IMG/VR virus record: IMGVR_UViG_3300044837_000097 | Location: 1-64,000 of that record | From: a virus | DNA length: 64,000 nt | Reading direction: 5' to 3' (one strand) | Shown here: one piece after another, positions 2,720-24,282 of the stretch | Layout of the letters: the number at the start of each line of letters is the position of its first letter | Position numbering within the stretch: the stretch's first letter is position 1 | Program-made: the position numbers and the translations under genes | The notes under the pieces: model-generated | What the model saw: only the letters and a program-made list of their open reading frames with translations | Told to the model about the DNA's origin: nothing | The model's database searches: none

Positions 2720-2729
2720 AAGTTTCAAT

Positions 2730-2994: not shown

Positions 2995-3003
2995 AGTTTC
3001 AGC

Positions 3004-3078: not shown

Positions 3079-3087
3079 AGTTTCAGT

Positions 3088-3162: not shown

Positions 3163-3166
3163 ATTT

Positions 3167-3522
3167 TTGTGGAGCCGTTAGGTTAATCCACAGACGATAC
3201 CCGCAGGGGTGCTCGTTTCAGTTCAGGCCCCTCGGGGCTGTTCGTACTGACGAGCGCCTTTGAGGGAGCTAACGGTGATAACGAGGCGTCTAAAGCACGC
3301 CTACCACAAAGTAGCACACGCCGAAATAACGCGAAAGCGTCGAACATATCGGGCGGCTACTATAATGTTGTCGCGACAGTAACCGAAACGGGCGTCGTCA
3401 TGAAGCGACCCGGTCTCCTCATGAGTGGTGGCGGGCTTGACCTGCAAAGGGACACAAGGTTACGGCGGGGTGAAACCCGCCCAAAGCGCCTCGGCGGGGC
3501 GCGTTGATAAATGCCGCCCGGA
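3167..3522 (+). ncRNA. large structured ncRNA of unknown family
   Basis: no credible ORF; many stems, GNRA-type loops, potential pseudoknot CCGTTAG/CTAACGG. Confidence 0.55.
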
Positions 3523-3533
3523 TTTGTTTCAAT

Positions 3534-3619
3534 CCGCTGGTGATGTAATAGCAGCCATGAATGCCTTAGAAGCATTTGGTCGAAAGACCGTGAAGGTGCA
3601 ACTCCTTCTCAGCGGACCA
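3534..3619 (+). tRNA. tRNA-Leu(TAG)
   Basis: AATGC-CTTAGAA-GCATT, long variable arm, CCA. Confidence 0.9.
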
Positions 3620-3640
3620 TTTTTGTACGTACATTAAGAA

Positions 3641-3675
3641 GGGGGAGCCGTGAACTCCCCCGACTCTTTCAGACA
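3641..3675 (+). promoter_or_regulatory. degenerate copy of the endonuclease-leader pseudoknot, no downstream ORF
   Basis: GGGGGAG-CCGTGAA-CTCCCCC followed by CTTTCAGAC (pairing partner broken). Confidence 0.6.
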
Positions 3676-3687
3676 TCTAGTTTCAGT

Positions 3688-3766
3688 GGTCGCGTCGGGA
3701 AAACGGGATATCCCAATGGCGTTCTAACCCATACAAAAGTAGGTTCGAATCCTACCGCGACTACCA
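3688..3766 (+). tRNA. tRNA-Arg(TCT)
   Basis: loop GTTCTAA with C:C mismatch closing; canonical T arm; CCA. Confidence 0.75.
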
Positions 3767-3772
3767 TTTTGT

Positions 3773-3847
3773 GGGCTGCTCGTATATCGTATAATGCACA
3801 GCGCTACGAACGCTGGGAGCGGGGTTAGACTCCCCGGTGGCCCTCCA
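3773..3847 (+). tRNA. tRNA-Arg(ACG)
   Basis: CAGCG-CTACGAA-CGCTG, CCA. Confidence 0.88.
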
Positions 3848-3856
3848 AGTTTAATT

Positions 3857-3943
3857 CGCCTGCTGGTGGAATTGGCAGACACGCCGGATTCAAAACCCGG
3901 TGCCCGAGAGGGCGTTAGAGTTCGAATCTCTAGTTGGCGACCA
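3857..3943 (+). tRNA. tRNA-Leu(CAA)
   Basis: loop TTCAAAA, long variable arm, CCA. Confidence 0.9.
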
Positions 3944-3975
3944 TTTTGAAATCCATTGACTACGGTCAGGTGATT

Positions 3976-4395
3976 ATGAACAGCAACCAAAGAAAAGATG
4001 CAACGCTAGGAATGCCTCACGGCACCGCGAGTGGCAGACTTCGGAAGATGATTTTGTTCAATCTTTTGAAAAAGCACGGCGAGAATTCCTGCCATGCTTG
4101 CGGAAAGCCGATTGATTCTGTAGATGCTTTGAGTATTGAGCACAAGAAACCGTGGGAAGGGGTATCGGCTGACTTGTTTTGGGATTTAGAAAACATAGCG
4201 TTTTCGCATCTTCGATGTAATACTCCGAACCGCCCTTACAACAATGGTGGGTGGAACAAGAAACCAGCCCCAGAAGGGATGGCGTGGTGCATCGGACATC
4301 AAGTATTCGAACCAGTCGAAAACTTTTGGAAGAACGCAAGTTTTTGGAATGGTCTTGAGAAGTACTGCAAGACGACCAAGATTCGAAATAGATAA
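3976..4395 (+). CDS. HNH homing endonuclease
   Basis: CHACG..LSIEHKKPW..NIAFSHLRCN. Confidence 0.85.
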   Translation: MNSNQRKDATLGMPHGTASGRLRKMILFNLLKKHGENSCHACGKPIDSVDALSIEHKKPWEGVSADLFWDLENIAFSHLRCNTPNRPYNNGGWNKKPAPEGMAWCIGHQVFEPVENFWKNASFWNGLEKYCKTTKIRNR

Positions 4396-4402
4396 AGATT
4401 TT

Positions 4403-4486
4403 GCGCGTGTGGCGGAAAGGCATACGCAGGGGACTTAAAACCCCCGACCGAAAGGTATGAGGGTCCGACTCCCTCGACGCGCACCA
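4403..4486 (+). tRNA. tRNA-Leu(TAA)
   Basis: loop CTTAAAA, long variable arm, CCA. Confidence 0.9.
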
Positions 4487-4491
4487 AGTTT

Positions 4492-4580
4492 GAGCACTGG
4501 CGGTTCGCCGCGTACTTCAAGACGCGAAGTGCGAATCGTCGGAAAACCTACCTCTCATTGAAGACGAGATTGGATGCTCA
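4492..4580 (+). ncRNA. multi-stem structured RNA, unknown
   Basis: closing stem TGAGCA/TGCTCA enclosing GCGG-TTCG-CCGC and two more stems. Confidence 0.45.
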
Positions 4581-4590
4581 ATTAGTTTAA

Positions 4591-4668
4591 CCCGGATGAT
4601 GCCGAAGTTCACGAGGCGTTCGCCTGCAAAGCGAATTGAAGCAGGTTGGAGTCCTGTCACTGGGTCCA
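4591..4668 (+). tRNA. tRNA-Cys(GCA)
   Basis: TTCGC-CTGCAAA-GCGAA, U73, CCA; bulged acceptor stem. Confidence 0.8.
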
Positions 4669-4759
4669 CTCATGTCGGATACCCGCGCTTGAACAGCGAG
4701 GGAGTAAGGTCCGAATCGTTTAAACGTGCTATGGTAACGAAAACCGGGGCACACATTTT

Positions 4760-5013
4760 TGGTAGCGTAGACTAACGCAGGCCGCAAGGCTTGAGGAAGT
4801 TCCTGCCACATCTCAACATCGAACCGTGGAAGTTGCGGGACGCGTAAGCGTACAAGTAAGCCTTCGTACTGAGCAATCAGTCATTGGAGCGAAGTAACTC
4901 TTTTCGGGTGCAAGTTCAAATAGGACCTGAGTGCTTGTTGAGCATGACGAAGGTCGGGTTGAATGCTTAGACGAATGTTAGTCCACGACAGAAGCAGGGC
5001 TACAGCGCCACCA
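4760..5013 (+). ncRNA. rnpB: RNase P RNA (compact, bacterial type-A-like)
   Basis: P1 TGGTAGCGT/GCGCCACCA; P2 GACTAAC/GTTAGTC; P3 hairpin; CR-I GAGGAAGTTCCTGC; CR-V ACAGAAGCAGGGCTA (P4 pairing); P6 CTCAACA/TGTTGAG; P15/P16 with GGT loop; AGACGAATG before P2 3' strand. Confidence 0.88.
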
Positions 5014-5051
5014 AATAAAAATTTTGATTGCTGGTTTAGCGGCCAGTAATC

Positions 5052-5100
5052 GGGTGGGCGTCCCTAGAAGACGCCCTCCCAACTCTTTCTAGGAGAGCAC
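5052..5100 (+). promoter_or_regulatory. RBS-occluding pseudoknot
   Basis: GGGCGTC-CCTAGAA-GACGCCC; loop complementary to TTCTAGG overlapping SD. Confidence 0.75.
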
Positions 5101-5503
5101 ATGGTTTGTACCAAATGCCGGACGGATAAATCTGTTGATGATTTTTACGATAGACATAAGACTGATAGCAACGTAGGTCGTAAGAAGTCCATTTGTAAAC
5201 TATGTCAACACAAACGAAACAGGGCATCAAACGCTGGCCGTCGTCGTGAACACAGAGATAGATTAGTTGTGATTAAGACAGAGCGCGGTTGTGCGGATTG
5301 TGGTTTTAGAGGATTGTGCCCCGGCGCTGCACTTTCATCACAGAAAACCAGAAGAGAAGAAGTTTGTTATCGCCCATTGTTTGCTGTATTCGTGGGAAAC
5401 GATTTTAGAAGAAGTAGAAAAGTGTGACGTGGTTTGTTCTATTTGTCATACTAAACGACATCAGTGCGCTGCGATTTCGAGCGGCAGAATACCTCCCTCT
5501 TAA
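5101..5503 (+). pseudogene. HNH endonuclease split by +1 frameshift near 5305
   Basis: frame 1 ends its homology at GCADCGF; frame +1 continues EDCAPALHFHH..EVEKCDVVCSICH; paralog of 8505..8855. Confidence 0.8.
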
Positions 5504-5542
5504 GGAGGCTTGGTCTCAGTTCAAGTCTGAGGCGGCGCACCA
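5466..5542 (+). tRNA. tRNA-Lys(CTT)
   Basis: CCTCC-CTCTTAA-GGAGG, CCA. Confidence 0.88.
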
Positions 5543-5549
5543 ATTTTCT

Positions 5550-5626
5550 GAGTCGCGGACGCGAGCGGCAGCGTACTCGCCTTTTAAGCGATGGATGTCC
5601 GAGTTCGAGCCTCGGGCGACTCACCA
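5550..5626 (+). tRNA. tRNA-Lys(TTT)
   Basis: loop CTTTTAA, acceptor GAGTCGC/GCGACTC, CCA. Confidence 0.88.
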
Positions 5627-5741
5627 ATTTTCGAAAGAGACGTGCGCCGCGCACGAGAGCGAAATAATGCGGCGGCGGGCGAATGACGCCCTCAGTCTAC
5701 CAAGACGTTACGAAGAGGTGGAATGCCTCAAAATTTTCTGT

Positions 5742-5817
5742 ACCCGATTATCAAACTGGTCGTATGAACCTCTCCTACAAAGAGGCTGGCAGAGTTCGAT
5801 TCTCTGATTGGGTACCA
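5742..5817 (+). tRNA. tRNA-Val(TAC)
   Basis: CCTCT-CCTACAA-AGAGG, CCA. Confidence 0.85.
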
Positions 5818-5824
5818 ATTTCTG

Positions 5825-5913
5825 TGGGGACGCAGTTCGCGGTAGAGTGAACGCTTGCGATATCCGGTACCGGACTCGTAAGATGGCGAGGGTGAATGAC
5901 CCTTGGGTTCCCA
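5825..5913 (+). ncRNA. cloverleaf tRNA-like RNA without anticodon loop or CCA
   Basis: four fully paired arms; anticodon-position arm capped by palindrome TCCGGTACCGGA. Confidence 0.55.
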
Positions 5914-5919
5914 GATTTT

Positions 5920-6010
5920 TGTCGGTAGCATCAGTATGCAGCGCGGTTTTATAAACCGCGAAGCTCCAGATGAGAGCGCCGAGAGTGGGCAGCACACTCA
6001 CCGACAACCA
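5920..6010 (+). tRNA. atypical tRNA, TAT anticodon (Ile-UAU-like)
   Basis: acceptor TGTCGGT/ACCGACA + ACCA; 4-nt D loop; 6-bp anticodon stem; long variable arm; T loop GGCAGCA. Confidence 0.7.
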
Positions 6011-6012
6011 GT

Positions 6013-6087
6013 GGCCCCGTCATCTAGTGGCGAGGATGCCAGCTTCTCAAGCTGGTCACACGAGTTCGACTCTCGTCGAGGCTACCA
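6013..6087 (+). tRNA. tRNA-Glu(CTC)
   Basis: CCAGC-TTCTCAA-GCTGG, CCA. Confidence 0.9.
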
Positions 6088-6126
6088 AGTTTGAAAATGT
6101 AAGAGGAGCAGTTTTAAGATACTCTC

Positions 6127-6417
6127 ATGGCAAACAACTATAACTCGAATCCGATTTTCATCGACAGCATAATGGCTGCAACCGCGAAGAATAGCGGCGC
6201 GACAACGACCAACCCGTTTCGTATTAAAGAAATTGTGTGGAGTACACCCGGAAGCACCGCAGCAGATTCCGCCGTAATTCAAGACGGCTTGGGTAATGAA
6301 ATTTTCGAACAACAATCAGGTCGAGCAGCACCTGAACTGTTTAATCCGCCAATGGTTATAAATGACTTCAAAGTAACAACTTTGGCAGATGGGCACATTC
6401 TGATTTATTTGGTGTAA
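6127..6417 (+). CDS. hypothetical protein, possibly virion beta-rich protein
   Basis: clean 96-aa ORF between tRNAs. Confidence 0.7.
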   Translation: MANNYNSNPIFIDSIMAATAKNSGATTTNPFRIKEIVWSTPGSTAADSAVIQDGLGNEIFEQQSGRAAPELFNPPMVINDFKVTTLADGHILIYLV

Positions 6418-6451
6418 AGCGCACCGTTATCCGCGCTCTTAGTTTTTCAGT

Positions 6452-6525
6452 GCCGTTATCTGCTATGGGTAGGCAACGAGGCTTTCAACTTCGTAGACAG
6501 GGTTCGAGTCCCTGTAGCGGTACCA
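6452..6525 (+). tRNA. tRNA-Glu(TTC)
   Basis: CGAGG-CTTTCAA-CTTCG, CCA. Confidence 0.88.
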
Positions 6526-6626
6526 ATTTTCGAAACGCGCCCATTCGTAGAGTGGGCTATCCCGGTCACTGCCGGGCGCTACGACGATAGCGTGAGTCGG
6601 TCAATACGACATCGCAAAGTTTCAGT

Positions 6627-6700
6627 GGGGTGCGAGTAGGACGGGAATACGGTTGCCTTGCCCGCATCAAGACGGGGTTCGACTCCCCGGCGCTCCACCA
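6627..6700 (+). tRNA. tRNA-Ala(TGC)
   Basis: G3:U70, A73, CCA; loop CTTGCCC. Confidence 0.8.
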
Positions 6701-6755
6701 AATTATAGGAGAGTGATATGACAGTTATACATTAGGTAACTCGGGAGGGTTATTT

Positions 6756-7118
6756 ATGTCTAAGTCATATCGCAAGCCTTGGGGTACGTATGTTGCTGTA
6801 AAGAGCAGCGCACATGCCGATAAGACGTTCGCCGCTCGCGCAATGCGTAGAGCGCAGAATCAGTCCTTGAGAGAAGCAATTCGTGACGACGACTGGGAAG
6901 GCTGGTTGATTCCCGAACGCTACGAGTGCAGAGACAACGATGTGTGGGGTTGGGGCCGAGACGGCAAGCAGCGTCCGATGTACCCGAGCAATCAGTATAA
7001 CAACCCATACGCATACGTATCCAGTCCGACGTGGATGGATGAAGAACAAATCTTCGCACGCTGGGAAGAACGCAAGAGCCACAACGATGATTTTATGGCC
7101 GATGCTTCTCGTAAATAG
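6756..7118 (+). CDS. hypothetical protein
   Basis: GGAGG RBS; MSKSYRKP..DK..A.R..RR. Confidence 0.75.
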   Translation: MSKSYRKPWGTYVAVKSSAHADKTFAARAMRRAQNQSLREAIRDDDWEGWLIPERYECRDNDVWGWGRDGKQRPMYPSNQYNNPYAYVSSPTWMDEEQIFARWEERKSHNDDFMADASRK

Positions 7119-7126
7119 TTTTCTGT

Positions 7127-7200
7127 TCCTCGCTCGTCCAATGGCAGGACGCATGCTTGATAGGCGTGTTATCGTGGTTCGAGTCCACGGTGAGGAACCA
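7127..7200 (+). tRNA. tRNA-Ile(GAT)
   Basis: loop TTGATAG, CCA. Confidence 0.88.
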
Positions 7201-7284
7201 AGTTCGAACAGACACGGGACCCGCTGTACACGGGTTGTCTGCTTCGGTGAGGAACTCCTGATAGGGCACCGATAAATTTTCTGT

Positions 7285-7361
7285 TGCGGGGTAGAGTTCT
7301 GGTGAACTCCGGTGTCTCATAAGCACACGCAGGCTGGGTTCGATTCCCGCTTCCGCAACCA
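7285..7361 (+). tRNA. tRNA-Met(CAT), initiator-like acceptor stem
   Basis: loop CTCATAA; TGCGGGG..CCGCAACCA; lacks the three G-C anticodon-stem pairs. Confidence 0.8.
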
Positions 7362-7370
7362 ATTTTCTGA

Positions 7371-7444
7371 GCGGGTGTGGTGTAATGGCAGCACCTCATC
7401 CTTCCAAGTTGAGTGTACGGGTCCGAGTCCCGTCGCCCGCTCCA
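7371..7444 (+). tRNA. tRNA-Gly(TCC)
   Basis: loop CTTCCAA, U73, CCA. Confidence 0.88.
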
Positions 7445-7452
7445 AGTTTTGA

Positions 7453-7526
7453 GCCTTGATGGTCTAGTGGTAGAACAGTTCCTTGGTAAGGAACAGGTCG
7501 TGGTTCGATTCCACGTCATGGCTCCA
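7453..7526 (+). tRNA. tRNA-Thr(GGT)
   Basis: GTTCC-TTGGTAA-GGAAC, CCA. Confidence 0.9.
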
Positions 7527-7534
7527 AGTTTTGA

Positions 7535-7608
7535 GCACGGTTAGTTTAGTGGCAGAACTGCCGCCTTGTAAGCGGTTGGCGTGTGTTCGATTCACACCCT
7601 GTGCTCCA
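7535..7608 (+). tRNA. tRNA-Thr(TGT)
   Basis: loop CTTGTAA, CCA. Confidence 0.9.
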
Positions 7609-7616
7609 AGTTCTGA

Positions 7617-7690
7617 GCGATGTTGGTGTAGTGGCAGCACGAGACCTTGCCAAGGTCTAGGTATCGTTTCGATTACGATACGTCGCTCCA
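7617..7690 (+). tRNA. tRNA-Gly(GCC)
   Basis: AGACC-TTGCCAA-GGTCT, U73, CCA. Confidence 0.9.
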
Positions 7691-7705
7691 ATTTTAAGAG
7701 GGACT

Positions 7706-8038
7706 ATGACCGACAACATGAGTGGCTCATCTCAGTTCGCTTTGTTTGCTTTAATCGGCGTCGGAGTTTTGGCCTGCTTAGGCGATGCGTACACAACTTT
7801 AAAGGGCTTCGATGTCGGTTTGGTAGAAGGCAATCCTGTTGCTCGTTGGCTTCAAAAGAAATTGGGATTTTCCTTATCGGCTTTTGTTGCAACTGGATTT
7901 TTTCTTGTATCCACTTCGATAATTTCCGTAGTTAGTCCGACTGCCGCGTTTGCAATAGCAGGTGGAGTCATTGCTCTGGAGACGTTCAATACAGTTCGAA
8001 ACTACTTGTTGTTCAAAAAGTACAGTAAGAAAAAGTAA
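7706..8038 (+). CDS. DUF5658-like membrane protein
   Basis: hydrophobic helices with DxxTT..G..EGNP motif. Confidence 0.7.
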   Translation: MTDNMSGSSQFALFALIGVGVLACLGDAYTTLKGFDVGLVEGNPVARWLQKKLGFSLSAFVATGFFLVSTSIISVVSPTAAFAIAGGVIALETFNTVRNYLLFKKYSKKK

Positions 8039-8062
8039 AGATTGTCAATCCACCAGTTTTGA

Positions 8063-8136
8063 GCACGGTTAGTCCAGTGGCAAGACGCTCCCCTCGTAAG
8101 GCAGAAGCGTTGGTTCGATTCCAGCACTGTGCTCCA
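8063..8136 (+). tRNA. tRNA-Thr(CGT)
   Basis: loop CTCGTAA, CCA. Confidence 0.82.
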
Positions 8137-8144
8137 GTTTCTAC

Positions 8145-8218
8145 TCGCCTTTAGCTCAGTGGTAGAGCGTCCGGCTGTTAACCGGGTGATGTTGGTTCGA
8201 TTCCAGCAGGGTGAGCCA
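8145..8218 (+). tRNA. tRNA-Asn(GTT), second copy
   Basis: canonical D and T arms, loop CTGTTAA, G73. Confidence 0.92.
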
Positions 8219-8223
8219 AGTTT

Positions 8224-8352
8224 CTGTTGTGACGCCGAACGGCAAGGCGCATCTAACATGAGGTAGATTCGAAGGCGGCTTAGTCCGTACGTGCTGACTT
8301 AGACAGCATTCGTCCATCGAGTCTACGTGTGGGTTCGAATCCCATCAACTGA
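8224..8352 (+). ncRNA. tRNA-like RNA with ~60-nt branched insertion, no CCA
   Basis: D arm CGCC-GAACGGCAA-GGCG; T arm GTGGG-TTCGAAT-CCCAT; insert closed by GTAGATTCGA/TCGAGTCTAC. Confidence 0.55.
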
Positions 8353-8362
8353 AAGTTTCAGC

Positions 8363-8438
8363 GAGTCGAAAGTGTTAGTGGCAGCATGTCGGTCTCCAAA
8401 ACCGTACGGTGGGGGTTCAAGTCCCTCTCTTCTCGCCA
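8363..8438 (+). tRNA. tRNA-Trp(CCA)
   Basis: loop CTCCAAA, G73, CCA. Confidence 0.82.
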
Positions 8439-8461
8439 ATTTTTGTACGTACAATTAGAAA

Positions 8462-8504
8462 GAGGGGAGCCGCGAACTCCCCTCAATCCTTTCGCGGGGG
8501 ATTT
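8462..8504 (+). promoter_or_regulatory. RBS-occluding pseudoknot
   Basis: GAGGGGAG-CCGCGAA-CTCCCCTC; loop complementary to TTCGCGG overlapping SD. Confidence 0.75.
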
Positions 8505-8855
8505 ATGAAGTGCGAATATCACGTTTGTAATAAAGAAGCAGGCACAAAAAGATATTGTTCTCGACCATGTAATACAAAACACCGTATTCACAAGGCAAGA
8601 AAAATTCAAAAACAGAAAGCCGTTGAATATCTCGGCGGTAAGTGCTCTCAGTGTGGATACAGCCGATGCATCGAGGCACTTCATTTTCACCACTTGAGAG
8701 ACAAACTTTTTGAAATCGGTAAGATGATTGGCTATCGTCAGGCGTGGTTAAAAATTCAAGCAGAACTAGATAAGTGTGTTTTACTTTGCGCCAACTGCCA
8801 TCATGAGTTTCATTACGGAGGGTTGACAGAACCCGGCATTGTGTCCGCTTGCTAA
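8505..8855 (+). CDS. HNH endonuclease
   Basis: GGKCSQCGY..ALHFHH..ELDKCVLLCANCHHEFH. Confidence 0.88.
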   Translation: MKCEYHVCNKEAGTKRYCSRPCNTKHRIHKARKIQKQKAVEYLGGKCSQCGYSRCIEALHFHHLRDKLFEIGKMIGYRQAWLKIQAELDKCVLLCANCHHEFHYGGLTEPGIVSAC

Positions 8856-8906
8856 GCGGCAGCCACCCGAGAGGGTGTGTAGGTTCAAATCCTACACCTT
8901 CCGCCA
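8817..8906 (+). tRNA. tRNA-Ser(GCT)
   Basis: loop TTGCTAA, long variable arm, G73. Confidence 0.9.
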
Positions 8907-8913
8907 ATTTTAC

Positions 8914-9000
8914 GGATGATTGGGCTTCATGGGGAGCAGCAGTCTTGAAAACTGTCCCGACTGAAAGGTCGAGAGGGTTCGATTCCTTCATCATCCGCCA
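8914..9000 (+). tRNA. tRNA-Ser(TGA)
   Basis: loop CTTGAAA, long variable arm, G73. Confidence 0.88.
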
Positions 9001-9005
9001 TTTAT

Positions 9006-9090
9006 GGAAGACAGTGCGAATGGCTCGCAACGGGTTTCGAACACCCGACCAGCCGCAAGGCTGACAGCTCAATTCTGTTCTCTTCCCCCA
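9006..9090 (+). tRNA. tRNA-Ser(CGA), atypical
   Basis: CGGGT-TTCGAAC-ACCCG, long variable arm; T loop CTCAATT, C73. Confidence 0.65.
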
Positions 9091-9091
9091 T

Positions 9092-9166
9092 CCCGTGCTA
9101 GTGTTAGCGGTAGCACCCCGGCTTGAAACCCCGGTAGGTAAGGTTCGAATCCTTAGAGCGGGACCA
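9092..9166 (+). tRNA. tRNA-Phe(GAA)
   Basis: loop TTGAAAC, CCA; acceptor mismatches. Confidence 0.75.
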
Positions 9167-9175
9167 AGTTTCTGT

Positions 9176-9255
9176 GCCTCGGTAGCTCAGAGCGATAAGA
9201 GCAATCGGTTTTTAACCGATAGGTCGTCCGCGCTGCGTCGGATTCGAGGCTTCCA
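9176..9255 (+). tRNA. tRNA-Lys(TTT)-like with aberrant T arm
   Basis: good D and anticodon arms (ATCGG-TTTTTAA-CCGAT); T loop lacks TTC. Confidence 0.55.
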
Positions 9256-9264
9256 ATTTTCTGT

Positions 9265-9338
9265 TGAGATGTCGTTTAATGGTAGGACAAGCGGCTTTGA
9301 CCCGCTGAATAAAGGTTCGAATCCTTTCGCCTCAACCA
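9265..9338 (+). tRNA. tRNA-Gln(TTG)
   Basis: U1-A72, loop CTTTGAC, CCA. Confidence 0.88.
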
Positions 9339-9436
9339 ATCTCGCGTCGTCGGTCAGGTACTTTGAGAGCGCGGCTAGACGCAATCTCGGAGGAAAAGGA
9401 CCCCATCGCCCTAGTGGGGACGGCGTTTATTTCTGT

Positions 9437-9510
9437 TCGGATGTCTTTCAACGGTAGGAAGCGCGGCTCTGAACCGCGTAATGCACGTTCGAGTCGTGCC
9501 GCCCGAACCA
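9437..9510 (+). tRNA. tRNA-Gln(CTG)
   Basis: U1-A72, CGCGG-CTCTGAA-CCGCG, CCA. Confidence 0.88.
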
Positions 9511-14360: not shown

Positions 14361-16607
14361 ATGGGTTTGACAGCAGCGCAGAGAAAGGCAAACCAGAGAG
14401 CACGCGAAAAGGGCATACCCGAGCCGTTCGGCGTGGAGTACGTCAGCAAAGTTGTGCAAGCGAAAGAATCTGCCGCTGAAAAGGAAAGCAGCGTGCGTCG
14501 TTTGCTCGACGAGGTTGCGGCACAGGATGCGATAGGAAAGAGATTCAAGAGCGAAGCGCGCAGTCTGACACGTCTTGTACGTATCTTCTACGGGCAACCG
14601 GAGAGTGGAGACGTAGACGGTGCAGAGGCCAGCGAGAGCACGCCAAAGAAGACCAAAGGTCCGAAGCGCGTCAACCCTTCCGAGACCCGGGTTCGTATTC
14701 AGAATACCCAAGCTGACCCTCTTGAACGAGGCAAAGGCCGTCGTCGTTCTCTCGAAGGCACAGAGTACGAGACGGACGACATCGTCGGATTCTGGCGCTG
14801 GCTTGAGTTGCGTGACCGTGCGCGTAAAGACTTGTTCTGGCTGGGCCGCGTGCTCGGCAAGGGCTTGTACCGCTCCGTTCACCAAATTATCTGCGACCAG
14901 TTCGTTCCAAAGAATTTTGGGGGCGCGTGGTTGAACTCGGACGGCGCGGAAGATACGACTCGTCCAACGATTGAGCCGTACTACTTCGAGGGCTACACAC
15001 TCGACGACTTCCACGATGCAATCGACGACCACCACCAGTGGCGCGACCACGAAATGATGTTACTTGACTCTCGTGGATTTTACAAGAGCACCATCGACGG
15101 AGTTGACGCGGTGCAGTGGTTGTTGAACTGCCCGGACATTCGCATCCTCATCTTGACGGGTGAGTACAAGCTGGCCGTCAAGTTCCAAAGCGAAATCAAA
15201 AAGTATTTTCACCTTGCAGAAGGACAGGAACCGGGAGCGATTCACTTGTTGTTTCCCGAGTACGTTCTGTACGGCAAGGAAGGTACCTCGGACAGTCCGT
15301 TAGAATGTCCGGCCCGCATGTTGAACCAAGGCGAACCCTCGCTGTGGGTTAACTCGATTGTCGCGAACCTTTCTGGTTGGCACTGCGACATCAAAAAGGG
15401 CGACGATATTGTTACCGACGAGAACTCAAATAGCGACGACTCTCGCGAGAAGTTGAAAGAGAAGTACGACGGTACCGACGACCTTTTGGACCCGCACGGG
15501 TTCATGGACCACATCGGCACCCGCTACTTCACTGACGACTGGTACGGTATGCGCCTGTCACCGGATAAAGAGACCGGGCAGGTTGCGCCGATTAAGTATT
15601 TCAAGCGCGGATGCTGGGTAATCAAACCAGAATACGCGAACATTAAGTTGAGCCAATTAACCGAGGATATGGTCGAATTGACCTTCCCTCAGCGTTGGAG
15701 CTTCAACAAACTCCGCTCACTTCTGTTGAAGAAGATGGCGGGCACTGGCAGTGACCGCGCCTTCCGCAATCAGCAGATGAACGAACCTACTGACGCGATG
15801 GAAGACAGCGGGTTCCGCATCAGCTTCGATGAAGCTACGATGCGCAAGCACATGTACCCGGGCGAGACCGCGCCGAAGCATGGCGAGACCTTCATTGTTT
15901 GGGACTGGGCGCTGTCGGACAAGAAGACATCGGATTATTCAGTGGGCGTCGTTGGCCGACTGTACAAGAGCGACACAGGACTGTGGTCGTTCTCAATCCT
16001 AGAAATAGTTTACGATAAGTGGAAGTATAGTGAACTCGCCTTTCAAATCGTGCTTCTCGCAAAGAAGTGGGGTCCAAAGGTGACGATGGTTGAGCAGTCG
16101 AACGGGTACGAAATGCTACGCGACGAAATCATCCGCGTCGGCAATAAGTACGGTTACCAGCCATATATTTACGCGAAACCGCCGTCTCGTCAGGAGAACG
16201 CAAAGCGCAACCGCATCAAGTCGCTTGAAATTCTTTTGAATGAAAACCGGCTCCACTTCGTGATGGGTCCGTGGATTGACGAGACCATCAAACAGTTTAC
16301 CCAGTACACCGGGGAGAAGAAGAACAAAGGCCGTAAGGACGACATCCCGGACGCCGCTTCTTACCTCGTGTACTTCATTCCGGCAGATTCAAGACCGAGC
16401 CCAGAAGGTTCGGACCCGGAAGAAGAGAAGAGACTAGAGGAAGAACAAACCAAGCAGGCAGCCAAACAATACCACTATGGTCGCTACTTTGGTCAGCATC
16501 TTCCCACCAATAAGCAGGCCGGACCCGTCATTGAAGAGGTTGCCGCGCCGAAGCCGCAGGACCCGCGCTTACGCTTGTTTGGAAAAAACGGGGCATTTAG
16601 AATGTGA
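14361..16607 (+). CDS. terminase large subunit
   Basis: SRGFYKST Walker A, GWHCDIKKGDD Walker B, IGTRY coupling motif, RNase H-like WDWA..DYS..KDDIPDA. Confidence 0.92.
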   Translation: MGLTAAQRKANQRAREKGIPEPFGVEYVSKVVQAKESAAEKESSVRRLLDEVAAQDAIGKRFKSEARSLTRLVRIFYGQPESGDVDGAEASESTPKKTKGPKRVNPSETRVRIQNTQADPLERGKGRRRSLEGTEYETDDIVGFWRWLELRDRARKDLFWLGRVLGKGLYRSVHQIICDQFVPKNFGGAWLNSDGAEDTTRPTIEPYYFEGYTLDDFHDAIDDHHQWRDHEMMLLDSRGFYKSTIDGVDAVQWLLNCPDIRILILTGEYKLAVKFQSEIKKYFHLAEGQEPGAIHLLFPEYVLYGKEGTSDSPLECPARMLNQGEPSLWVNSIVANLSGWHCDIKKGDDIVTDENSNSDDSREKLKEKYDGTDDLLDPHGFMDHIGTRYFTDDWYGMRLSPDKETGQVAPIKYFKRGCWVIKPEYANIKLSQLTEDMVELTFPQRWSFNKLRSLLLKKMAGTGSDRAFRNQQMNEPTDAMEDSGFRISFDEATMRKHMYPGETAPKHGETFIVWDWALSDKKTSDYSVGVVGRLYKSDTGLWSFSILEIVYDKWKYSELAFQIVLLAKKWGPKVTMVEQSNGYEMLRDEIIRVGNKYGYQPYIYAKPPSRQENAKRNRIKSLEILLNENRLHFVMGPWIDETIKQFTQYTGEKKNKGRKDDIPDAASYLVYFIPADSRPSPEGSDPEEEKRLEEEQTKQAAKQYHYGRYFGQHLPTNKQAGPVIEEVAAPKPQDPRLRLFGKNGAFRM

Positions 16608-16704: not shown

Positions 16705-17334
16705 ATGATGTCGAAAAACCCTTTATGCAAACACGGCGATTTATATTATTGTAAACAGTGTGGTGGAAAAGGCCGCTGCCCGCATGGGCGAATTCGTTAC
16801 TCTTGCAAAGACTGCAATGTTTTGGGTACGGGCGGCGAGGCTATTTGTGAACATAATAATCGCCGATACCGGTGTGTAGAGTGTAAGGTTTTAGGAGTTG
16901 GTGGAAGTTCTCTGTGTGAACACAATAAAGTTAAACGAAACTGTATTCAATGTGGCGGTGCCGGAATTTGTGAGCACGGCAGGCAGAAAAGTAATTGTAA
17001 GAAATGCAGTGGTTTTGTTCGTTTGGCAAGAACGATGCACCAATCTGCTAAAAAGAGAGCAAAGAAGAAAAGTCTCCCTTTTGAGTTGTCGGTACAAGAT
17101 GTTTTAGATTTAATCGGGAGTGGAATTTGTCCTATTTTTGGTACGCCGTTCGAAACAGGATTTGGTCTTCATAAAACATCGGCATCTCTTGATAGATTTA
17201 AGCCCGAGTTGGGTTACACCAAAGAAAATTGTTCGGTTATTTCCCATTTGGCTAACGCAATGAAGCAGGGCGCAAACGCGGACGAAATTCAGCGTTTGGC
17301 GGATTGGGTGCGCTCAAAAGAAAAGACTCAATAG
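16705..17334 (+). CDS. free-standing HNH-type endonuclease with CxH..CxxC repeats
   Basis: five CxH..CxxC repeats; CPIFG..SLDRF..GYTKENC..AN.MK. Confidence 0.82.
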   Translation: MMSKNPLCKHGDLYYCKQCGGKGRCPHGRIRYSCKDCNVLGTGGEAICEHNNRRYRCVECKVLGVGGSSLCEHNKVKRNCIQCGGAGICEHGRQKSNCKKCSGFVRLARTMHQSAKKRAKKKSLPFELSVQDVLDLIGSGICPIFGTPFETGFGLHKTSASLDRFKPELGYTKENCSVISHLANAMKQGANADEIQRLADWVRSKEKTQ

Positions 17335-17353: not shown

Positions 17354-19492
17354 ATGGCAGAGTTTGAACCGGAAGTAGTTGGCGCGCGTGACGAAAAAGA
17401 GGCGCAGATTGCTGCGTTGTATCAGGACCCAGCAAACGAAATCACCGCCGAGAACACGTATATCGACAGCGAGACCGGAACCATTCAGCTCAACGACGAA
17501 GCGGCTATTCGCCTCGTATTGACCGACACCGACACGGCTGACAACTTTATCAACGTCAACCAGTGGGCATCAGGCTGGACGATGGCGGACTTGTTGTACC
17601 AGTCCCCGGTATCCGGTGACGGCTCGGGAAACACAACCGACGTTGTGAGTTCTGCCGTTCCGAAGTTCATGGTATCGAATCACATCTCGTCGATTGTGCC
17701 GAAGATTATGGGCGGCATCTTCTACGAGGACCCGTGCTTCATGCTGCGTCCGTCACCGGGCACCACGCCGCAGGTCATCCAAGCGAAGACCGCCGTCTTC
17801 ACTTTTCAATTGAAGGCTATGCGCTACGAAGAAGAAGTAGAGCGCGGACTGGAACAGATGGCGTTGCTTGGCACCGCAATTTGGAAGTGGGGCTATACCG
17901 AGTACGACAAGACGCTCAAGAAATACAAGCGTTACGCCGACCAGCAACAGATTACTGACGGCGGCGAGACGGTGTCGATTGACACGCCGTCGTCGGACGA
18001 CTTCGAGATTGAATTCTACTCGAAGAAGGTCTCTCACCCGTGGATTAAGTTCTGCGACCTCCGCACGGTCCTTGTGGACCCGGGATGCCGCGTGGGCGAC
18101 ATCCGCGCAGCGAAGTGGGTTGTCTACCGCGATTACGCGACGTACGACGACCTGAATAAACTTCGCGGGCTAGAAGGCTACAACATCCCAGAAGAAGATG
18201 TTCTCAAGGCGATGTTCATGCGCCCGGTCAACCCGGGTAAGCCCGACAACATTTCGATGACCCTGCCGGAAGGCATGATGGGCTACTTGCAGCACAGTCG
18301 CCCGAGAAACATCAAGACCTCAGCAGACCCGACTCGCCAACCTCTAGAAATTCTGGAGCGTTGGGATAATGAGAAGGTCATGGTGGTCCTGATTTATAAC
18401 GGTCACAACATTCTTATTCGCAACGAAGCGAATCCTTACGGGAAGATTCCGTTCTTCTCGGCAAACTGGCGCAACATCCCGGACAGCTTCTACGGTCAGG
18501 GTCTTGGCCTGCTAATCGGCAGCGAGCAAATCGTTGAGCAAGGCGTAACAAACCTCGCACTCGACCTGCTTGCCTACTGCTTGCAGCCCGTGGCTCTACG
18601 TAAGAAAGGATTCAACGCACCAACGCAGAACACACGATGGGAACAGGGCGGCATTATCGACGTTGAAGAAGACGTTGAGAAGGCGTTCAAGTTCCTACAA
18701 ATGCCGACGCCTCCGCAAGAAGCGTTTGCCTTCATCCAGCAATCACAGAGCGCGGGCGCTGCCACATCAGGCGCGAACGAGCAGGTTATGCAGGGCGCAG
18801 GGCACGCGGGCATTTCGACGACAGGCATGAGAAGTGGTACTGGCGCGGCGGCTGTTATCAGCGCGAACGCCAGCCGTCTCGACGGCCCAACGGGCCGTTT
18901 CGTCCGCCAAGTGTTCGAGCCGTGGTTGCATCAGATGGACGATTTGAACAACGACCTTCTACCGACTCAAGTCATGAAGGATATTCTTGGCGAAGAGTTG
19001 GGCGGGTCGATTAAGCTGGACCACATCGAGTACAGAAACTCGTCGGTCAAGTATGAAGTTCTGGCGGGAGCCAACCTCGGTGCCAAGAAGGAAATGGCAC
19101 AGGCTCTACCGTTCATCATTCAGTTGATGACCAACCCAGTCTTCGTGAAGAACGCGAACGACGCCGGATACCAGTTCGACGCAATCGCAATCTTCCAAGC
19201 GTTCGTGGACGCAGCAGGCTGGAAGTTCTCTCAGGCTTTTCTACGCAAGATGTCGGACAAAGAAGCCCAGCAGTTTCAGGCGAACAGTCCAGCAGCACTC
19301 GCGCAACAGCAGGCCAAGAACGCACAAGCCGCCGCAGACCAGAAGTTCAAGCAGGAACAGACTCTCGAAAACCAGAAGCAACTCGGCAAAGCCGGAAACG
19401 AGGCGGTACGCGCTTCTATCGAGAAGGCTACACTGCCAGCACTTATGGGTACACCACAAGTCGCTGGTTTTGGCCAAGTCACGGCTTTATAA
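17354..19492 (+). CDS. portal protein
   Basis: 712 aa after terminase; VDP..A.W and PDSFYGQG motifs of podovirus portals. Confidence 0.88.
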   Translation: MAEFEPEVVGARDEKEAQIAALYQDPANEITAENTYIDSETGTIQLNDEAAIRLVLTDTDTADNFINVNQWASGWTMADLLYQSPVSGDGSGNTTDVVSSAVPKFMVSNHISSIVPKIMGGIFYEDPCFMLRPSPGTTPQVIQAKTAVFTFQLKAMRYEEEVERGLEQMALLGTAIWKWGYTEYDKTLKKYKRYADQQQITDGGETVSIDTPSSDDFEIEFYSKKVSHPWIKFCDLRTVLVDPGCRVGDIRAAKWVVYRDYATYDDLNKLRGLEGYNIPEEDVLKAMFMRPVNPGKPDNISMTLPEGMMGYLQHSRPRNIKTSADPTRQPLEILERWDNEKVMVVLIYNGHNILIRNEANPYGKIPFFSANWRNIPDSFYGQGLGLLIGSEQIVEQGVTNLALDLLAYCLQPVALRKKGFNAPTQNTRWEQGGIIDVEEDVEKAFKFLQMPTPPQEAFAFIQQSQSAGAATSGANEQVMQGAGHAGISTTGMRSGTGAAAVISANASRLDGPTGRFVRQVFEPWLHQMDDLNNDLLPTQVMKDILGEELGGSIKLDHIEYRNSSVKYEVLAGANLGAKKEMAQALPFIIQLMTNPVFVKNANDAGYQFDAIAIFQAFVDAAGWKFSQAFLRKMSDKEAQQFQANSPAALAQQQAKNAQAAADQKFKQEQTLENQKQLGKAGNEAVRASIEKATLPALMGTPQVAGFGQVTAL

Positions 19493-21271: not shown

Positions 21272-24200
21272 ATGTCTGGACCAAATCCAGCAGCATCAAA
21301 CGTAGCAAACGTCCTAACGGCGCAAGCCATCATCAAAAAGGTGACACTCTAAAACAACTTGACTGAAAGAGTCAAATGTGCTAGAATAGACAATCTCTTC
21401 TTATTGACTTGAAACCTGAAACGGCAACAAGGCGGAAGCCGAAAGGCACCGTGAGAGACTAAGCGAAGAGACGCCGAAAGGCGATGCGATAGTCCGTTCT
21501 TCCGAGAAAACAATCGGAAGAAGCAAGCAGAAATGACTTGCTCTCTGGAATACACCAGAGTAACAAAACAGCTTCGACAAGGAACTTATCCCTATCGCGT
21601 AAGCGAGCAAGTTCCGAAGGAATGACATGAAGGTACGAAACATCGTTGGACAGACTTTTGGGAGACTGGCCGCCCAGAGTGCCGCAGGCAGTAACAGCAG
21701 GGGGCGAGCACTGTGGTTGTGTCGTTGTTCTTGTGGCAAAGAGAAAATAGTTCTCGGAGACCACTTAACACGAAAGGATGCCAAAGGCGTAAGGTCTTGC
21801 GGATGTTTACAGCAAGAGAATCGTACAAAGCATGGAGCATTTTCTTCAAATTCAGATATAAAATACCACGTTCGTTATTCTCTTCTGGCAGGCTTGAAGG
21901 ACAGAAGCCGCAGAAGGGGCTACGAATCAGACTTAGAAATCTCCGACATACCCGAGATTCCTGAGCTTTGTCCCGTTCTTGGGACTCGTTTGAGTTTGCA
22001 CCGAAACAGCCACGGCAAAGGAAAAGGCAGAGGCAGAAATAGACAAGACGCCTCTCCATCAATAGACAGATTTAATTCAAATCTTCCGTACCTTAAAAAG
22101 TACAAAGATAATCTGTGTATTATTTCGTGGCGAGCAAACAAGCTAAAGTCAGACGCGTCTCTTGTCGAGATGAAGAAAGTGGTGGAATATCTTGAAAATT
22201 GGGGCACTCAGCAGAGTGAAAAATCTTCTCTAATTGACTCGAAACCCAACCAAATCGGGGGCAACGAGGCGGAAGCGAATAGCGCCGTGAGAGACTAATC
22301 GAGAAGACGCCGAGAGGCGATGTAATAGTCCGGTCTAACAAATGAAAATTGTTAGAGGCAGGCGGAAACGACCAGTCCCGTGATGGGCGTCACGGTAACA
22401 TATACGAACCTAAAGGGTAATACAAACGCCTTCGTTGGAGCAGCAGAGCGTCGTGTTCAGGGCCTTCACATGGGCATCAACCGTACGTTCTTCCAGTACA
22501 ACACGCTATCGGGTGACATCACCCAGAAGGCGGACGGTACTGTAGGCTCGCCGGAAACCATCACCCAGTTGAGCGCACCCGCTCAAATCGGTGAGTGGAA
22601 AAACTAAGTTATTCCACTATAAACTCAGCTATATCAAATTAGGTCTTGACAAACCGCAAAGGCTCTTGTTAAGATGAGTTTGAGGAAACTCTAAATGGAA
22701 AAGAAAGCGTGGCCGTATGTGGCCGGATTGCTAGATGCAGAAGGGACAATCCAGATTGGCGTCGATAGAAGGCCAGACGGCGTAATCGGGATGTCGCTTC
22801 AAATTATCATCACTAATACCGACACTCGACTGATGAAGTGGCTTAGTTCAAACTTCGGGGGGAAGTTCTACCGAAGGAAGAACACTCGCGGCTTTTCATC
22901 GAGCGAGTCTCCCGATATTTACTTTTGGTGGCTTTTCGGTAAAGAAAAACAAGAAGCATTTCTTCTCGGTATCCTTCCTTTTCTCAAAACAAAGAAACAA
23001 GAGGCCCTTCTGGGTCTTGAGTTTGTTCGTTTGGTCGGGTGGAATAAAGAAAGAAAACTTCAAATAGCGGAAGAAATGAAAGCCGCTAAGGTTAGTGATG
23101 TAGAGAAAGATAGGCAAGTTAATCTGACAAGGCTTACCCCCGCAGAAGACTCGGCATACGCCGCAGGGCTTTTTGATGGGGATGGTTCAATCGGCTCAAG
23201 CGTAGAGATTACTCAAAAGAGGATTCTTCTGATGAGGTGGCTCTTGATGTGCTTTGGCGGAAGGTTTAACCAACGCAGCATGAACGGCGGTAAAACTTTT
23301 TTCAGGTGGCGTCTCTCAGGAAAGAAAAACAAAGAGTTGTTTCTTCTTGATTTGATTCCTCATCTTGTTATTAAACGGGACAGTGCAAGAGCATTGCTCG
23401 CTTCTCTTAGAGCATCAAAGAGTTCCGCAACGACTGACATGTTGAGTACTTCGCAAGAAGTGAAGACACAGTCTGAACTTACTGGTGACAGTAAGAGCGA
23501 CCCTGTGAAGACACAGGACTCCATAAACAAAAAGTAACTTCGCGAACTTTTCGTCGTTCGCAATTGCAGCAGCAATTGACGAACTCGTTGGCAACAGCGC
23601 CGTGGAACTTGGCTACCAAGCTGGGCAGTCCATCAGCGAGTTGTACAGCGCAGTAGCAGACAGCGCCAACTCGGTTGACTCACAGGTTAACCAGTCATCG
23701 TTGCTTGCATCTCCGTACACGCTTGACCTTGGCACCATCCGTGAGTTGAAGCAGCAGCTTGTTTCAAAGAACGTGTTGCCGTGCAAGCGCGGTATGTTCT
23801 TGGGCGCAATTAGCCCGAACGTGTTGGGCGACATTTACAATGCAACGACTGTGAACAACAGCATCGTTGACTTGTGGAAGTACGAGAACATGGAGAAGTA
23901 CGACCAGATGGCAGGTTCGGACCAGAACAAGGTCATCGTGTTGCCGGGTACCAACATCGGCTTCATGCAGACCCCGTTCGTGACCACGACTGCTAACTAC
24001 CAGTCAACAGGCAAAATTGGCTACCGCACATACGTGTTCGGTAACTACGCCATGATTGGTGTGTGGTTGCAGGTACCGGGCGACACCGACCTTGACGACG
24101 GTGACTGGAAGACGATTGACTGCCGCGTCGTAACCGACGCGCCGATGTCATCGTTTGACCCAGTTTCGACGATTGGCGGATGGTGTTCGTACAAATTTCA

Positions 24201-24282
24201 TCAAACCGTTACGTTGCCACCGGCAACGGGAACAAACACGCAGCGTATCCGCTACGTAGATTCGGTTCCGGCCATTCAGTAA
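21272..24282 (+). CDS. major capsid protein, spliced: exons 21272-21333, 21572-21593, 22407-22600, 23535-24282 (341 aa)
   Basis: joined exons give one open 1026-nt frame MSGPNP..AIIFDKELIPNLKG..QIGEWNNFANFSS..ELGYQAGQS..VPAIQ; position after scaffold. Confidence 0.88.
21334..21571 (+). mobile_element. group I intron 1 (ORF-less, 238 nt)
   Basis: P1 with U:G (TCAT|C / GGTGA), P3 CTCTTC/GAAGAG, P7 GACTA/TAGTC, terminal G. Confidence 0.9.
21359..21387 (+). promoter_or_regulatory. sigma70 promoter inside intron 1
   Basis: TTGACT-17nt-TAGAAT with extended -10 TG. Confidence 0.6.
21594..22406 (+). mobile_element. group I intron 2 with endonuclease ORF in P1 loop
   Basis: exon CCCT|A pairs with TGGGG at ~22200; P2 CACTC/GAGTG; P3 CTTCTC/GAGAAG; P7 GACTA/TAGTC; terminal G. 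Confidence 0.88.
21627..22298 (+). CDS. intron-encoded HNH-type homing endonuclease
   Basis: GQTFGRL..WLCRCSCG..SCGC N-domain; CPVLG..SIDRF..NLCIISWRANKLK. Confidence 0.88.
   Translation: MKVRNIVGQTFGRLAAQSAAGSNSRGRALWLCRCSCGKEKIVLGDHLTRKDAKGVRSCGCLQQENRTKHGAFSSNSDIKYHVRYSLLAGLKDRSRRRGYESDLEISDIPEIPELCPVLGTRLSLHRNSHGKGKGRGRNRQDASPSIDRFNSNLPYLKKYKDNLCIISWRANKLKSDASLVEMKKVVEYLENWGTQQSEKSSLIDSKPNQIGGNEAEANSAVRD
22601..23534 (+). mobile_element. group I intron 3 with LAGLIDADG ORF in P6
   Basis: IGS GTTATTCCAC complementary to ligated exons GTGGAA|TAAC; P3 ACTCAGC/GTTGAGT; P6 GGAAACTCT/AGAGTTCC; P7 GACTG/CAGTC; terminal G. Confidence 0.82.
22646..22675 (+). promoter_or_regulatory. sigma70 promoter inside intron 3
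   Basis: TTGACA-18nt-TAAGAT with TG extension, 20 nt before ORF. Confidence 0.6.
22695..23537 (+). CDS. double-motif LAGLIDADG homing endonuclease
   Basis: YVAGLLDAEG and YAAGLFDGDG. Confidence 0.92.
   Translation: MEKKAWPYVAGLLDAEGTIQIGVDRRPDGVIGMSLQIIITNTDTRLMKWLSSNFGGKFYRRKNTRGFSSSESPDIYFWWLFGKEKQEAFLLGILPFLKTKKQEALLGLEFVRLVGWNKERKLQIAEEMKAAKVSDVEKDRQVNLTRLTPAEDSAYAAGLFDGDGSIGSSVEITQKRILLMRWLLMCFGGRFNQRSMNGGKTFFRWRLSGKKNKELFLLDLIPHLVIKRDSARALLASLRASKSSATTDMLSTSQEVKTQSELTGDSKSDPVKTQDSINKK

Follow-up and report, generated by a model that had tools for sequence, protein, structure and literature searches.

How can a tailed phage produce its major capsid protein from a gene of which only fragments appear as open reading frames (ORFs)? 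This question is raised by positions 21272-24282 of a 64,000-nucleotide (nt) stretch of DNA, hereafter the window, which covers positions 1 to 64,000 of the IMG/VR virus record IMGVR_UViG_3300044837_000097 (82.7 kb in full); the source is an uncultivated soil or peat tailed phage. The locus is very probably an HK97-fold major capsid gene of this phage that is interrupted by three group I introns. According to the proposed mechanism, each intron would fold into a ribozyme after transcription. An internal guide would form P1 with the last bases of the preceding exon; in introns 1 and 3 it would also form P10 with the first bases of the following exon. Two transesterifications would then join the exons to an mRNA for a capsid protein of 341 amino acids (aa). 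Intron 1, which harbors no gene, most likely spreads by co-conversion with intron 2.

Gene layout and joined reading frame

On the plus strand of 21272-24282, the ORF list contains fragments only, namely pieces of 33 aa (the start), 75 aa and 226 aa (the 3' part, 23602-24282), and ORFs of 223 and 280 aa are located between the fragments of the capsid gene. Excision of 21334-21571, 21594-22406 and 22601-23534, the introns delimited in an earlier note on this DNA, yields 1026 nt, i.e. 341 codons plus a stop codon without any internal stop, and the arithmetic of that note is right. The gene is then composed as follows:

21272-21333, + strand: exon 1, 62 nt, from the ATG to codon 21 phase 2, encoding MSGPNPAASNVANVLTAQAI(I), colinear with homologues
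21334-21571, + strand: intron 1, 238 nt, ORF-less group I intron
21572-21593, + strand: exon 2 (micro-exon), 22 nt, encoding (I)FDKELIP
21594-22406, + strand: intron 2, 813 nt, group I, of the intron 1 family, with a putative endonuclease gene in the P1 loop
22407-22600, + strand: exon 3, 194 nt, last base A22600
22601-23534, + strand: intron 3, 934 nt, group I, of a second family
23535-24282, + strand: exon 4, 748 nt including the stop codon

Introns 1 and 2 follow an exon-terminal T and intron 3 an exon-terminal A, and all three end in G (G21571, G22406 and G23534). Reading through from any exon into its intron leads to a stop within 2-7 codons. Skipping of exon 2 shifts the frame, as had been predicted, and ends at a stop after 22 codons.

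The joined protein was compared with 16 uninterrupted homologues, spread over the identity range of the 120 matches listed. All 16 align without gaps at any junction (74-92% identity), as the earlier note would have it for intron-less homologues, the residues across the junctions (slashes) being AQAII/FDKELIP/NLKG and IGEWN/NFANF. With the exon-4 translation as query, a database search yielded 296 homologues at E<=0.001; identities reach 92%, and a length of exactly 341 aa is frequent among them. F22, D23, K24, E25, L26, P28 and N29 as well as G90, E91, W92 and N93 are invariant across 33 homologues; the (I)FDKELIP that had been assigned to the 22-nt exon is indeed encoded there. The ratio of nonsynonymous to synonymous divergence (dN/dS) of the joined exons against six intron-less genes is 0.077-0.103, at synonymous divergences (dS) of 0.76-1.68. 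Together with the gap-free alignment, this indicates that the exon pieces evolve as one functional coding sequence, and the joined exons are under strong purifying selection. Numerous truncated 'proteins' of 230-320 aa are found among the database relatives of the capsid protein. Gene callers thus yield capsid fragments only, here the 226-aa piece that had been foreseen for naive ORF finding, and evidently likewise in many relatives.

Identity of the gene product

Pfam and PHROGs contain no family matching the capsid exons, a profile of the capsid family found chance-level kinesin matches only among PDB sequences (E>=0.006), and megablast of the capsid region against cultured phages gave no match. 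Among cultured phages, the sole homologue is gp6 of Tunturiibacter phage Tunturi_3, which is 38% identical (E 2e-30) and was annotated by its depositors as 'major head protein'. The capsid gene is preceded by large terminase (14361-16607), then a free-standing HNH gene, then portal (17354-19492) and finally an Ala/Pro-rich 433-aa ORF.

An AlphaFold model based on a shallow alignment (33 sequences, all >=73% identical) reached a predicted local distance difference test score (pLDDT) of 35.7 and was discarded. A second alignment comprised 68 diverse sequences, with distant relatives added. From this alignment, a model was obtained for P0001, an uninterrupted homologue that shares 314 of 341 residues with the spliced product; it attained a pLDDT of 81 and a predicted template modelling score (pTM) of 0.75. 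Foldseek matched this model to 331 PDB chains at E<=0.001; the top matches are all phage capsid proteins, among them those of N4 (9e99, E 3.7e-13), Moo19, LME-1 and Pan3, with template modelling (TM) scores of 0.55-0.66. The earlier assignment as major capsid gene, and more specifically an HK97-fold major capsid protein as its predicted product, is supported because the fold of the P0001 model, the gene order of the head module and the annotated 'major head protein' homologue all point to it.

Relatives and insertion sites

A scan of IMG/VR with exon 4 provided 80 related loci, which were analysed by local tblastn with the spliced product and subsequent junction refinement. Double introns mis-resolved by the automatic junction finder (a single 1051-nt insert in each of the window, L019 and L021, 'site 73' in L070 and 'site 954' in L079) were settled by eye. 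The gene is present as an uninterrupted, ungapped frame of 341 codons in 24 of the 80 loci. Introns, those of the LAGLIDADG type included, occur in 42 of them at no fewer than 14 sites, and L079 alone possesses four introns. The insertion sites lie at coding nt 62, 84, 89, 274, 277, 278, 925, 931, 934, 941, 945, 978 and 993. Two further sites are nt 954, occupied in L079, and a position that precedes the stop codon by about 12 nt and is occupied in L049 and L081. Among the 53 insertions listed for the window and its relatives, 46 conform to the pattern 'exon ends in U, intron ends in G'. An intron-terminal G is found in 49; the exceptions are three site-274 copies, which end in A, and 'site 73' of L070, a mis-resolved double intron.

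Other very short exons were seen in this collection. In L079 (5640-6105), a 29-nt exon is located between the introns at sites 925 and 954, and the terminal exon of L049 (~5945-6160) and L081 (~5975-6180) consists of 12 nt plus the stop codon (PAIQ and stop).

Introns 1 and 2: one ribozyme family

The ORF-less insertions of the relatives, 168-247 nt in length, clearly form one family. The cores of 28 of the relatives' introns, none of them from the window, were aligned (alignment A1), and a group I structure comprising P3, P4, P5, P6, P6a, P7 (a pseudoknot), P8 and P9 was laid over the alignment. In A1, 90.6% of cells pair and 28 of the 38 pairs change on both sides, values that none of 500 shuffles reached; with the structure slid by 1-3 columns, only 34-43% were paired. 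The two-sided changes affect 7 of 7 pairs in P3, 5 of 7 in P4/P5, 5 of 7 in P6, 4 of 4 in P8 and 1 of 6 in P7. All cells of P3, P6, P7 and P8 are paired; five of the six P7 pairs are constant and the sixth alternates between A-U and G-C (17 to 11). P9 is poorly aligned and 57% paired.

The covariance model built from A1, termed R1, matches the core of intron 1 (21394-21524; 144.1 bits, E 3.3e-29) and that of intron 2 (22224-22359; 100.2 bits, E 8.7e-20). In the rest of the 64-kb window, its sole extra match is located at the 3' core of intron 3 (12.5 bits, E 0.59), and over the whole 82.7-kb record no further match at E<=0.001 was obtained. The two cores are 78% identical over 116 nt, and judged by these comparisons introns 1 and 2 can be regarded as sister copies of one group I ribozyme family. 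Among the 80 loci, R1 detects 55 copies in 39, all on the coding strand and all inside the capsid gene; the capsid flanks (up to 5 kb on each side in the 80 loci) contain no copy.

For intron 1, the following helices were read off the sequence:

21330-21334/21340-21344, + strand: P1
21394-21524, + strand: core P3-P9 (the omega G of the intron is 21571)
21394-21400/21465-21471, + strand: P3
G21455 and 21457-21461/21490-21495, + strand: P7
21472-21483, + strand: P8

P1, P3, P8 and P9 are recovered in the minimum free energy (MFE) fold of this intron. P1 is formed by UCAU/C (the slash marking the splice site) and GGUGA, with the splice-site pair U21333.G21341 present in the MFE fold, and P10 comprises 3 base pairs (bp), judged by eye.

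Intron 2 requires a different arrangement. A search with RNAduplex near its 5' end found no guide that includes the splice site. In all seven ORF-bearing introns of this family examined (six besides intron 2), the 5' splice site is separated from a G-rich guide by an HNH-type ORF, and this guide directly precedes P2 and P3, as in the ORF-less relatives. The guide changes with the exon, GAGT standing for AACTT in L063 and GGGT for AACCT elsewhere. The elements of intron 2 are:

21627-22298, + strand: intron-2 ORF, 223 aa, candidate HNH-type homing endonuclease (phrog_374 E 3.9e-18, phrog_3322 E 4.1e-18)
22200-22204, + strand: putative guide (U22200, GGGG22201-22204), pairing with CCCU/A at 21590-21594, placed by homology
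22205-22218, + strand: putative P2 hairpin, directly after the guide, placed by homology

With the guide at U22200-G22204, the HNH gene would therefore lie in the P1 loop. The ORF has no match in Pfam, and its last ~30 codons read through the guide, P2 and P3-P6.

Intron 3: a second family

Intron 3 was compared with homologous insertions at nt 274, 277 and 278, seven in total (the window, L015, L043, L076, L050 = L051, L075 and L079). Its elements are as follows:

22606-22611 and 22612-22618, + strand: guide, P10 part and P1 part, respectively, read off the sequence
22623-22629/23441-23447, + strand: P3, compensatory changes across the seven introns
22634-22640/22677-22683, + strand: P4, compensatory changes across the seven introns
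22644-22652/22666-22674, + strand: P5, hairpin that refolds locally in every copy
22684-22692/23419-23426, + strand: P6, holds in five of seven copies
22695-23537, + strand: intron-3 ORF, 280 aa, predicted double-motif LAGLIDADG endonuclease (PF00961 E 8.6e-7, PF14528 E 1.4e-4, phrog_5046 E 8.5e-26)
23432-23436/23469-23473, + strand: P7, invariant in five of seven copies
23448-23461, + strand: P8, hairpin that refolds locally in every copy
23478-23495, + strand: P9, compensatory changes across the seven introns
23502-23517, + strand: P9.1, compensatory changes across the seven introns (the omega G of the intron is 23534)

P3 occurs in the variants ACTCAGC/GTTGAGT, ATTTAGT/ACTAAAT and ACTTGAC/GTCAAG(C). 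In P9.1, 6 of 6 positions are paired in all seven copies with five different sequences. P5 and P8 form hairpins at constant positions, their sequences being unrelated between copies. P6 retains only 3 of 8 pairs in L075 and L079; compensatory changes are seen in P6 and P8 as well. P1 comprises 7 bp (22594-22600/22612-22618), and the guide covaries with the exon (GGTGAAT/GTTCACC versus GGCGAGT/GCTCGCC). P10 comprises 6 bp between AAGUUA and UAACUU and includes the first 6 nt of exon 4; the first base of exon 4 covaries with its P10 partner, forming T-A in the window and C-G in L015, L043 and L076. The conserved group I core, comprising the P3-P7 pseudoknot, the P4-P6 domain, P8 and a P7 with a bulged nucleotide, is present in both families. 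The structural proposal of the earlier note, i.e. group I introns each with a P3/P7 core, a guide of its own and G as the last base, holds for the three introns.

The intron-3 ORF carries the motifs VAGLLDAEG and AAGLFDGDG. It begins right after the 5' strand of P6, i.e. in L6, and runs through P6', P7, P8, P9 and P9.1, with its stop codon straddling the 3' splice site. The activity of this endonuclease, as that of the HNH-type protein of intron 2, is predicted from the encoded motifs and family matches.

Mobility of the introns

Two contigs from other samples, L019 and L021, show the same arrangement of intron 1, 22-nt exon and intron 2. In comparison with the window, intron 1 (238/238) and exon 2 (22/22) are identical, and intron 2 matches in 799/813 (L019) and 811/813 (L021) positions. 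Within exon 3, the first 60 nt agree in 56-59/60 positions and the remainder in 104-106/134; the value for exon 4 is 581-632/748. Endonuclease-driven homing would predict just such a pattern, in which the cassette and a short co-converted flank are nearly identical while the genes otherwise share ~80% identity, and the pattern points to this process. Homing of the cassette would also explain the persistence of the ORF-less intron 1, which would travel with intron 2. L070 has the same 22-nt exon with the distribution reversed, the HNH gene residing in the site-62 intron and the site-84 intron being ORF-less. Each of the two sites can also be occupied without the other: L047 and L077 have an intron at site 62, L069 has one at site 84. 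In one soil run and one peat run, DNA contigs contain introns 1 and 2 and lack intron 3 (joints 22606>23542/23545); these contigs are DNA alleles, not spliced RNA.

Objections and alternative explanations

Several points weigh against three self-splicing introns in a functional capsid gene. Splicing of all three introns, its autocatalysis and its efficiency are predicted from DNA sequence; no RNA run was found to contain the stretch, and the four runs compared with it consist of DNA contigs. The Rfam model RF00028 has no match anywhere in the window at its gathering score; in E-value mode it reports intron 3 only (23394-23495; 24.2 bits, E 0.003, versus a gathering score of 50), and introns 1 and 2 are unreported even at E<=10. 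The search with group I models that had been suggested for this locus succeeds in one part, the custom model R1 matching introns 1 and 2, and fails in the other, RF00028 staying below gathering. Given the covariation results, we attribute this miss to a limitation of RF00028 as one individual model. Introns 1 and 2 have a P1 of only 4-5 bp, which in intron 2 must close over a loop of ~600 nt, and inspection by eye gives intron 2 a P10 of no more than 2 bp; some group I introns can dispense with P10. Furthermore, the endonuclease ORFs of introns 2 and 3 both overlap ribozyme core sequence. Finally, the record is a metagenome assembly with a CheckV completeness estimate of 81%, so that the viability of this exact genome may be questioned.

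The most specific objection concerns intron 3, whose cleavage-site pair is A22600-U22612, not the near-universal U.G. The four site-278 copies and the one at site 277 all have an A at position -1. Alternative in-frame junctions of intron 3 give EWKNF variants, in which the terminal G is absent and no U stands at -1; the use of a U-terminated 5' exon together with a G acceptor farther downstream would cost the protein its invariant W92/N93. The site-274 copies (L050/L051 3966-4995 and L075 3066-3701), 4 nt upstream, possess a canonical U.G at the 5' splice site. In these three copies, the intron ends in A, not G, as judged by colinearity and a 5-bp P10, and P7 is unchanged in L050/L051 and differs by one pair in L075. 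In work attributed to Barfod & Cech 1989 and Doudna et al. 1989, Watson-Crick replacements at the Tetrahymena U.G reportedly slow the first step strongly, which makes efficient autocatalysis of intron 3 uncertain. Whether the intron 3 family represents a natural group I lineage that gave up both of the most conserved splice-site nucleotides, U.G and omega G, is a tentative idea to which we assign slightly less than an even chance. A literature search on natural 5' splice sites other than U.G gave nothing usable, and their absence from print is not claimed; the review PMC3984707 contains 0 occurrences of 'capsid' or 'wobble'.

These features raise the question of whether the introns, while derived from group I, depend on a protein. 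Intron 3, and perhaps intron 2, might require a helper, e.g. its own LAGLIDADG maturase, and the conserved A-U in the site-277 and site-278 copies, the intact LAGLIDADG ORF with its overlap of the core, and the long-range P1 and weak P10 of intron 2 would fit such a dependence. LAGLIDADG maturases are known in fungal mitochondria, and the intron-3 protein is possibly also a maturase. Yet intron 3 displays full core helices as well as a P1 of 7 bp and a P10 of 6 bp that are present and covary, and nothing else about it looks degenerate. A helper is therefore considered rather unlikely, and it is a refinement of the explanation by three group I introns, not a contradiction to it.

A different objection is that the capsid gene is dead, with unspliced mobile DNA residing in a defective or mis-assembled genome. 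The origin from an incomplete metagenome assembly and the lack of an Rfam intron call at gathering could be taken in this sense, but a dead gene would hardly retain a perfect 341-codon frame with a dN/dS of about 0.08-0.10. Moreover, the unit of intron 1, micro-exon and intron 2 recurs on independent contigs (L019, L021) and on contigs of two public runs, the introns of 42 of 80 relatives lie without exception within the capsid gene and on its coding strand, and their helices are maintained by compensatory changes, so that this explanation is highly improbable. Removal of the insertions at another level, as inteins, by translational bypassing or through separately translated capsid pieces, could be considered since LAGLIDADG and HNH endonuclease domains are also found in inteins and split phage genes exist. 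These readings are practically excluded, because stops follow each junction closely (2-7 codons into each insertion) and no frame fuses an endonuclease to the capsid. The endonuclease ORFs possess start codons and ribosome-binding sites of their own, the 22-nt exon is too short for a separate gene, and intron 1 has no ORF. Insertions of 238-934 nt also far exceed the known translational bypass gaps. An interrupted capsid gene with three group I introns hence remains the best explanation.

Comparison with known systems

The three-intron capsid gene itself has close precedents and is not a new kind of system, and the rarity implied in the earlier note was overstated in view of Staphylococcus phage Twort orf142 (PMC10136302), a crAss-like capsid gene (PMC10136315) and mycobacteriophage LittleE (PMC3706429). 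Twort orf142 encodes a tail tube protein (PMC11878797) and harbors three group I introns of class IA2, with a 23-nt exon between two highly similar introns and exon skipping detected by reverse transcription PCR (RT-PCR) (PMC10136302). As in Twort, two related introns flank a very short exon (here 22 nt, between cores of 78% identity). Unlike Twort, the host gene here encodes a capsid instead of a tail tube protein, the host phylum and the ribozyme family differ, and L1 of one of the two paired introns contains a putative HNH gene.

In the crAss-like 'Zeta' phage OHFV01000001, three group I introns interrupt the major capsid gene (PMC10136315); this phage belongs to the gut Crassvirales, not to this soil lineage, and is likened by description, not by sequence. 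For the capsid intron of LittleE, splicing was proven by RT-PCR and N-terminal sequencing, and the same paper cites a capsid intron of Tuc2009 (PMC3706429). The present gene shares with LittleE a LAGLIDADG-like ORF in a major capsid intron, recognition against intron-less relatives, and exon-terminal U with intron-terminal G. In contrast to LittleE, with a single intron and the ORF on the opposite strand (PMC3706429), the present gene has three introns, whose splicing is predicted from DNA sequence. In the main text of the paper on the Tunturi viruses, the nearest cultured relatives, 'intron' has 0 occurrences (PMC11924767). Three features go beyond these precedents: the density at which introns populate this capsid family, the joint transfer of two introns as one cassette, and a non-canonical splice site in intron 3.

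Wider distribution of the intron 1/2 ribozyme family

The sole match of intron 1 in a cultured phage is found in Roseobacter phage CRP-118 (OR420741.1; blastn, 76% over 109 nt). It lies in an unannotated gap of ~400 nt (L086 2481-2880) between the ribonucleotide reductase coding sequences gp44 and gp45, to which R1 assigns 77.2 bits (E 6.2e-16) with a compensated P3. This putative intron belongs to the same ribozyme family as introns 1 and 2 and, unlike the capsid introns, resides in a nucleotide-metabolism gene of a marine podophage.

A scan of IMG/VR for the core motif returned at least 120 stretches, of which 79 new loci were read, as a sample and not a census. The same capsid family is present in 15 of these 79 loci. 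From the other 64, 20 flanking open frames were sampled by length and closeness to the motif; they comprise six P22-type coat proteins, five ribonucleotide reductases, one LAGLIDADG ORF, one TnsA-like protein and seven frames without Pfam match. The core motif adjoins P22_CoatProtein frames (E 8e-17 to 8e-32) in L087, L138, L148, L154, L145 and L158, and capsid genes of an unrelated HK97 family thus appear to host the intron 1/2 family as well.

Neighbouring elements in the window

The following further elements were noted in the window:

632-961, + strand: small ORF, starting with MNRRSFL (Tat-signal-like) and ending in a diverged copy of capsid residues ~88-128
2337-9507, + strand (all): 20 tRNA genes, Rfam at gathering score
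16705-17334, + strand: free-standing HNH-type ORF in the gap between terminase and portal, phrog_3322, 26% identical to the intron-2 ORF over 90 aa
24382-24810, + strand: endonuclease VII-like ORF right after the capsid gene, Pfam PF02945 E 2.6e-18

The free-standing ORF at 16705-17334 shares phrog_3322 with the intron-2 ORF. The capsid residues copied in the small ORF at 632-961 span the intron 3 site. A search with the capsid profile found more than 20 small proteins (72-109 aa) that match only capsid positions ~80-137; six of seven fetched members start with M[NQE]RR.FL, and they form a recurrent small-protein family.

Biological implications

The locus would imply that three ribozyme-dependent processing steps, one of them across a 22-nt exon, are tolerable even in the late gene that a phage expresses most strongly. 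The near-identical two-intron cassette would be a clean natural example of an ORF-less intron hitch-hiking on the endonuclease of its neighbour, and mobile group I introns seem to have a major reservoir in the capsid genes of soil phages. With the A-U splice site of intron 3, the role of the U.G wobble could be examined in a concrete natural case. If the intron 3 family splices sufficiently to supply capsid protein, either its ribozyme would read splice sites differently or the LAGLIDADG protein would compensate.

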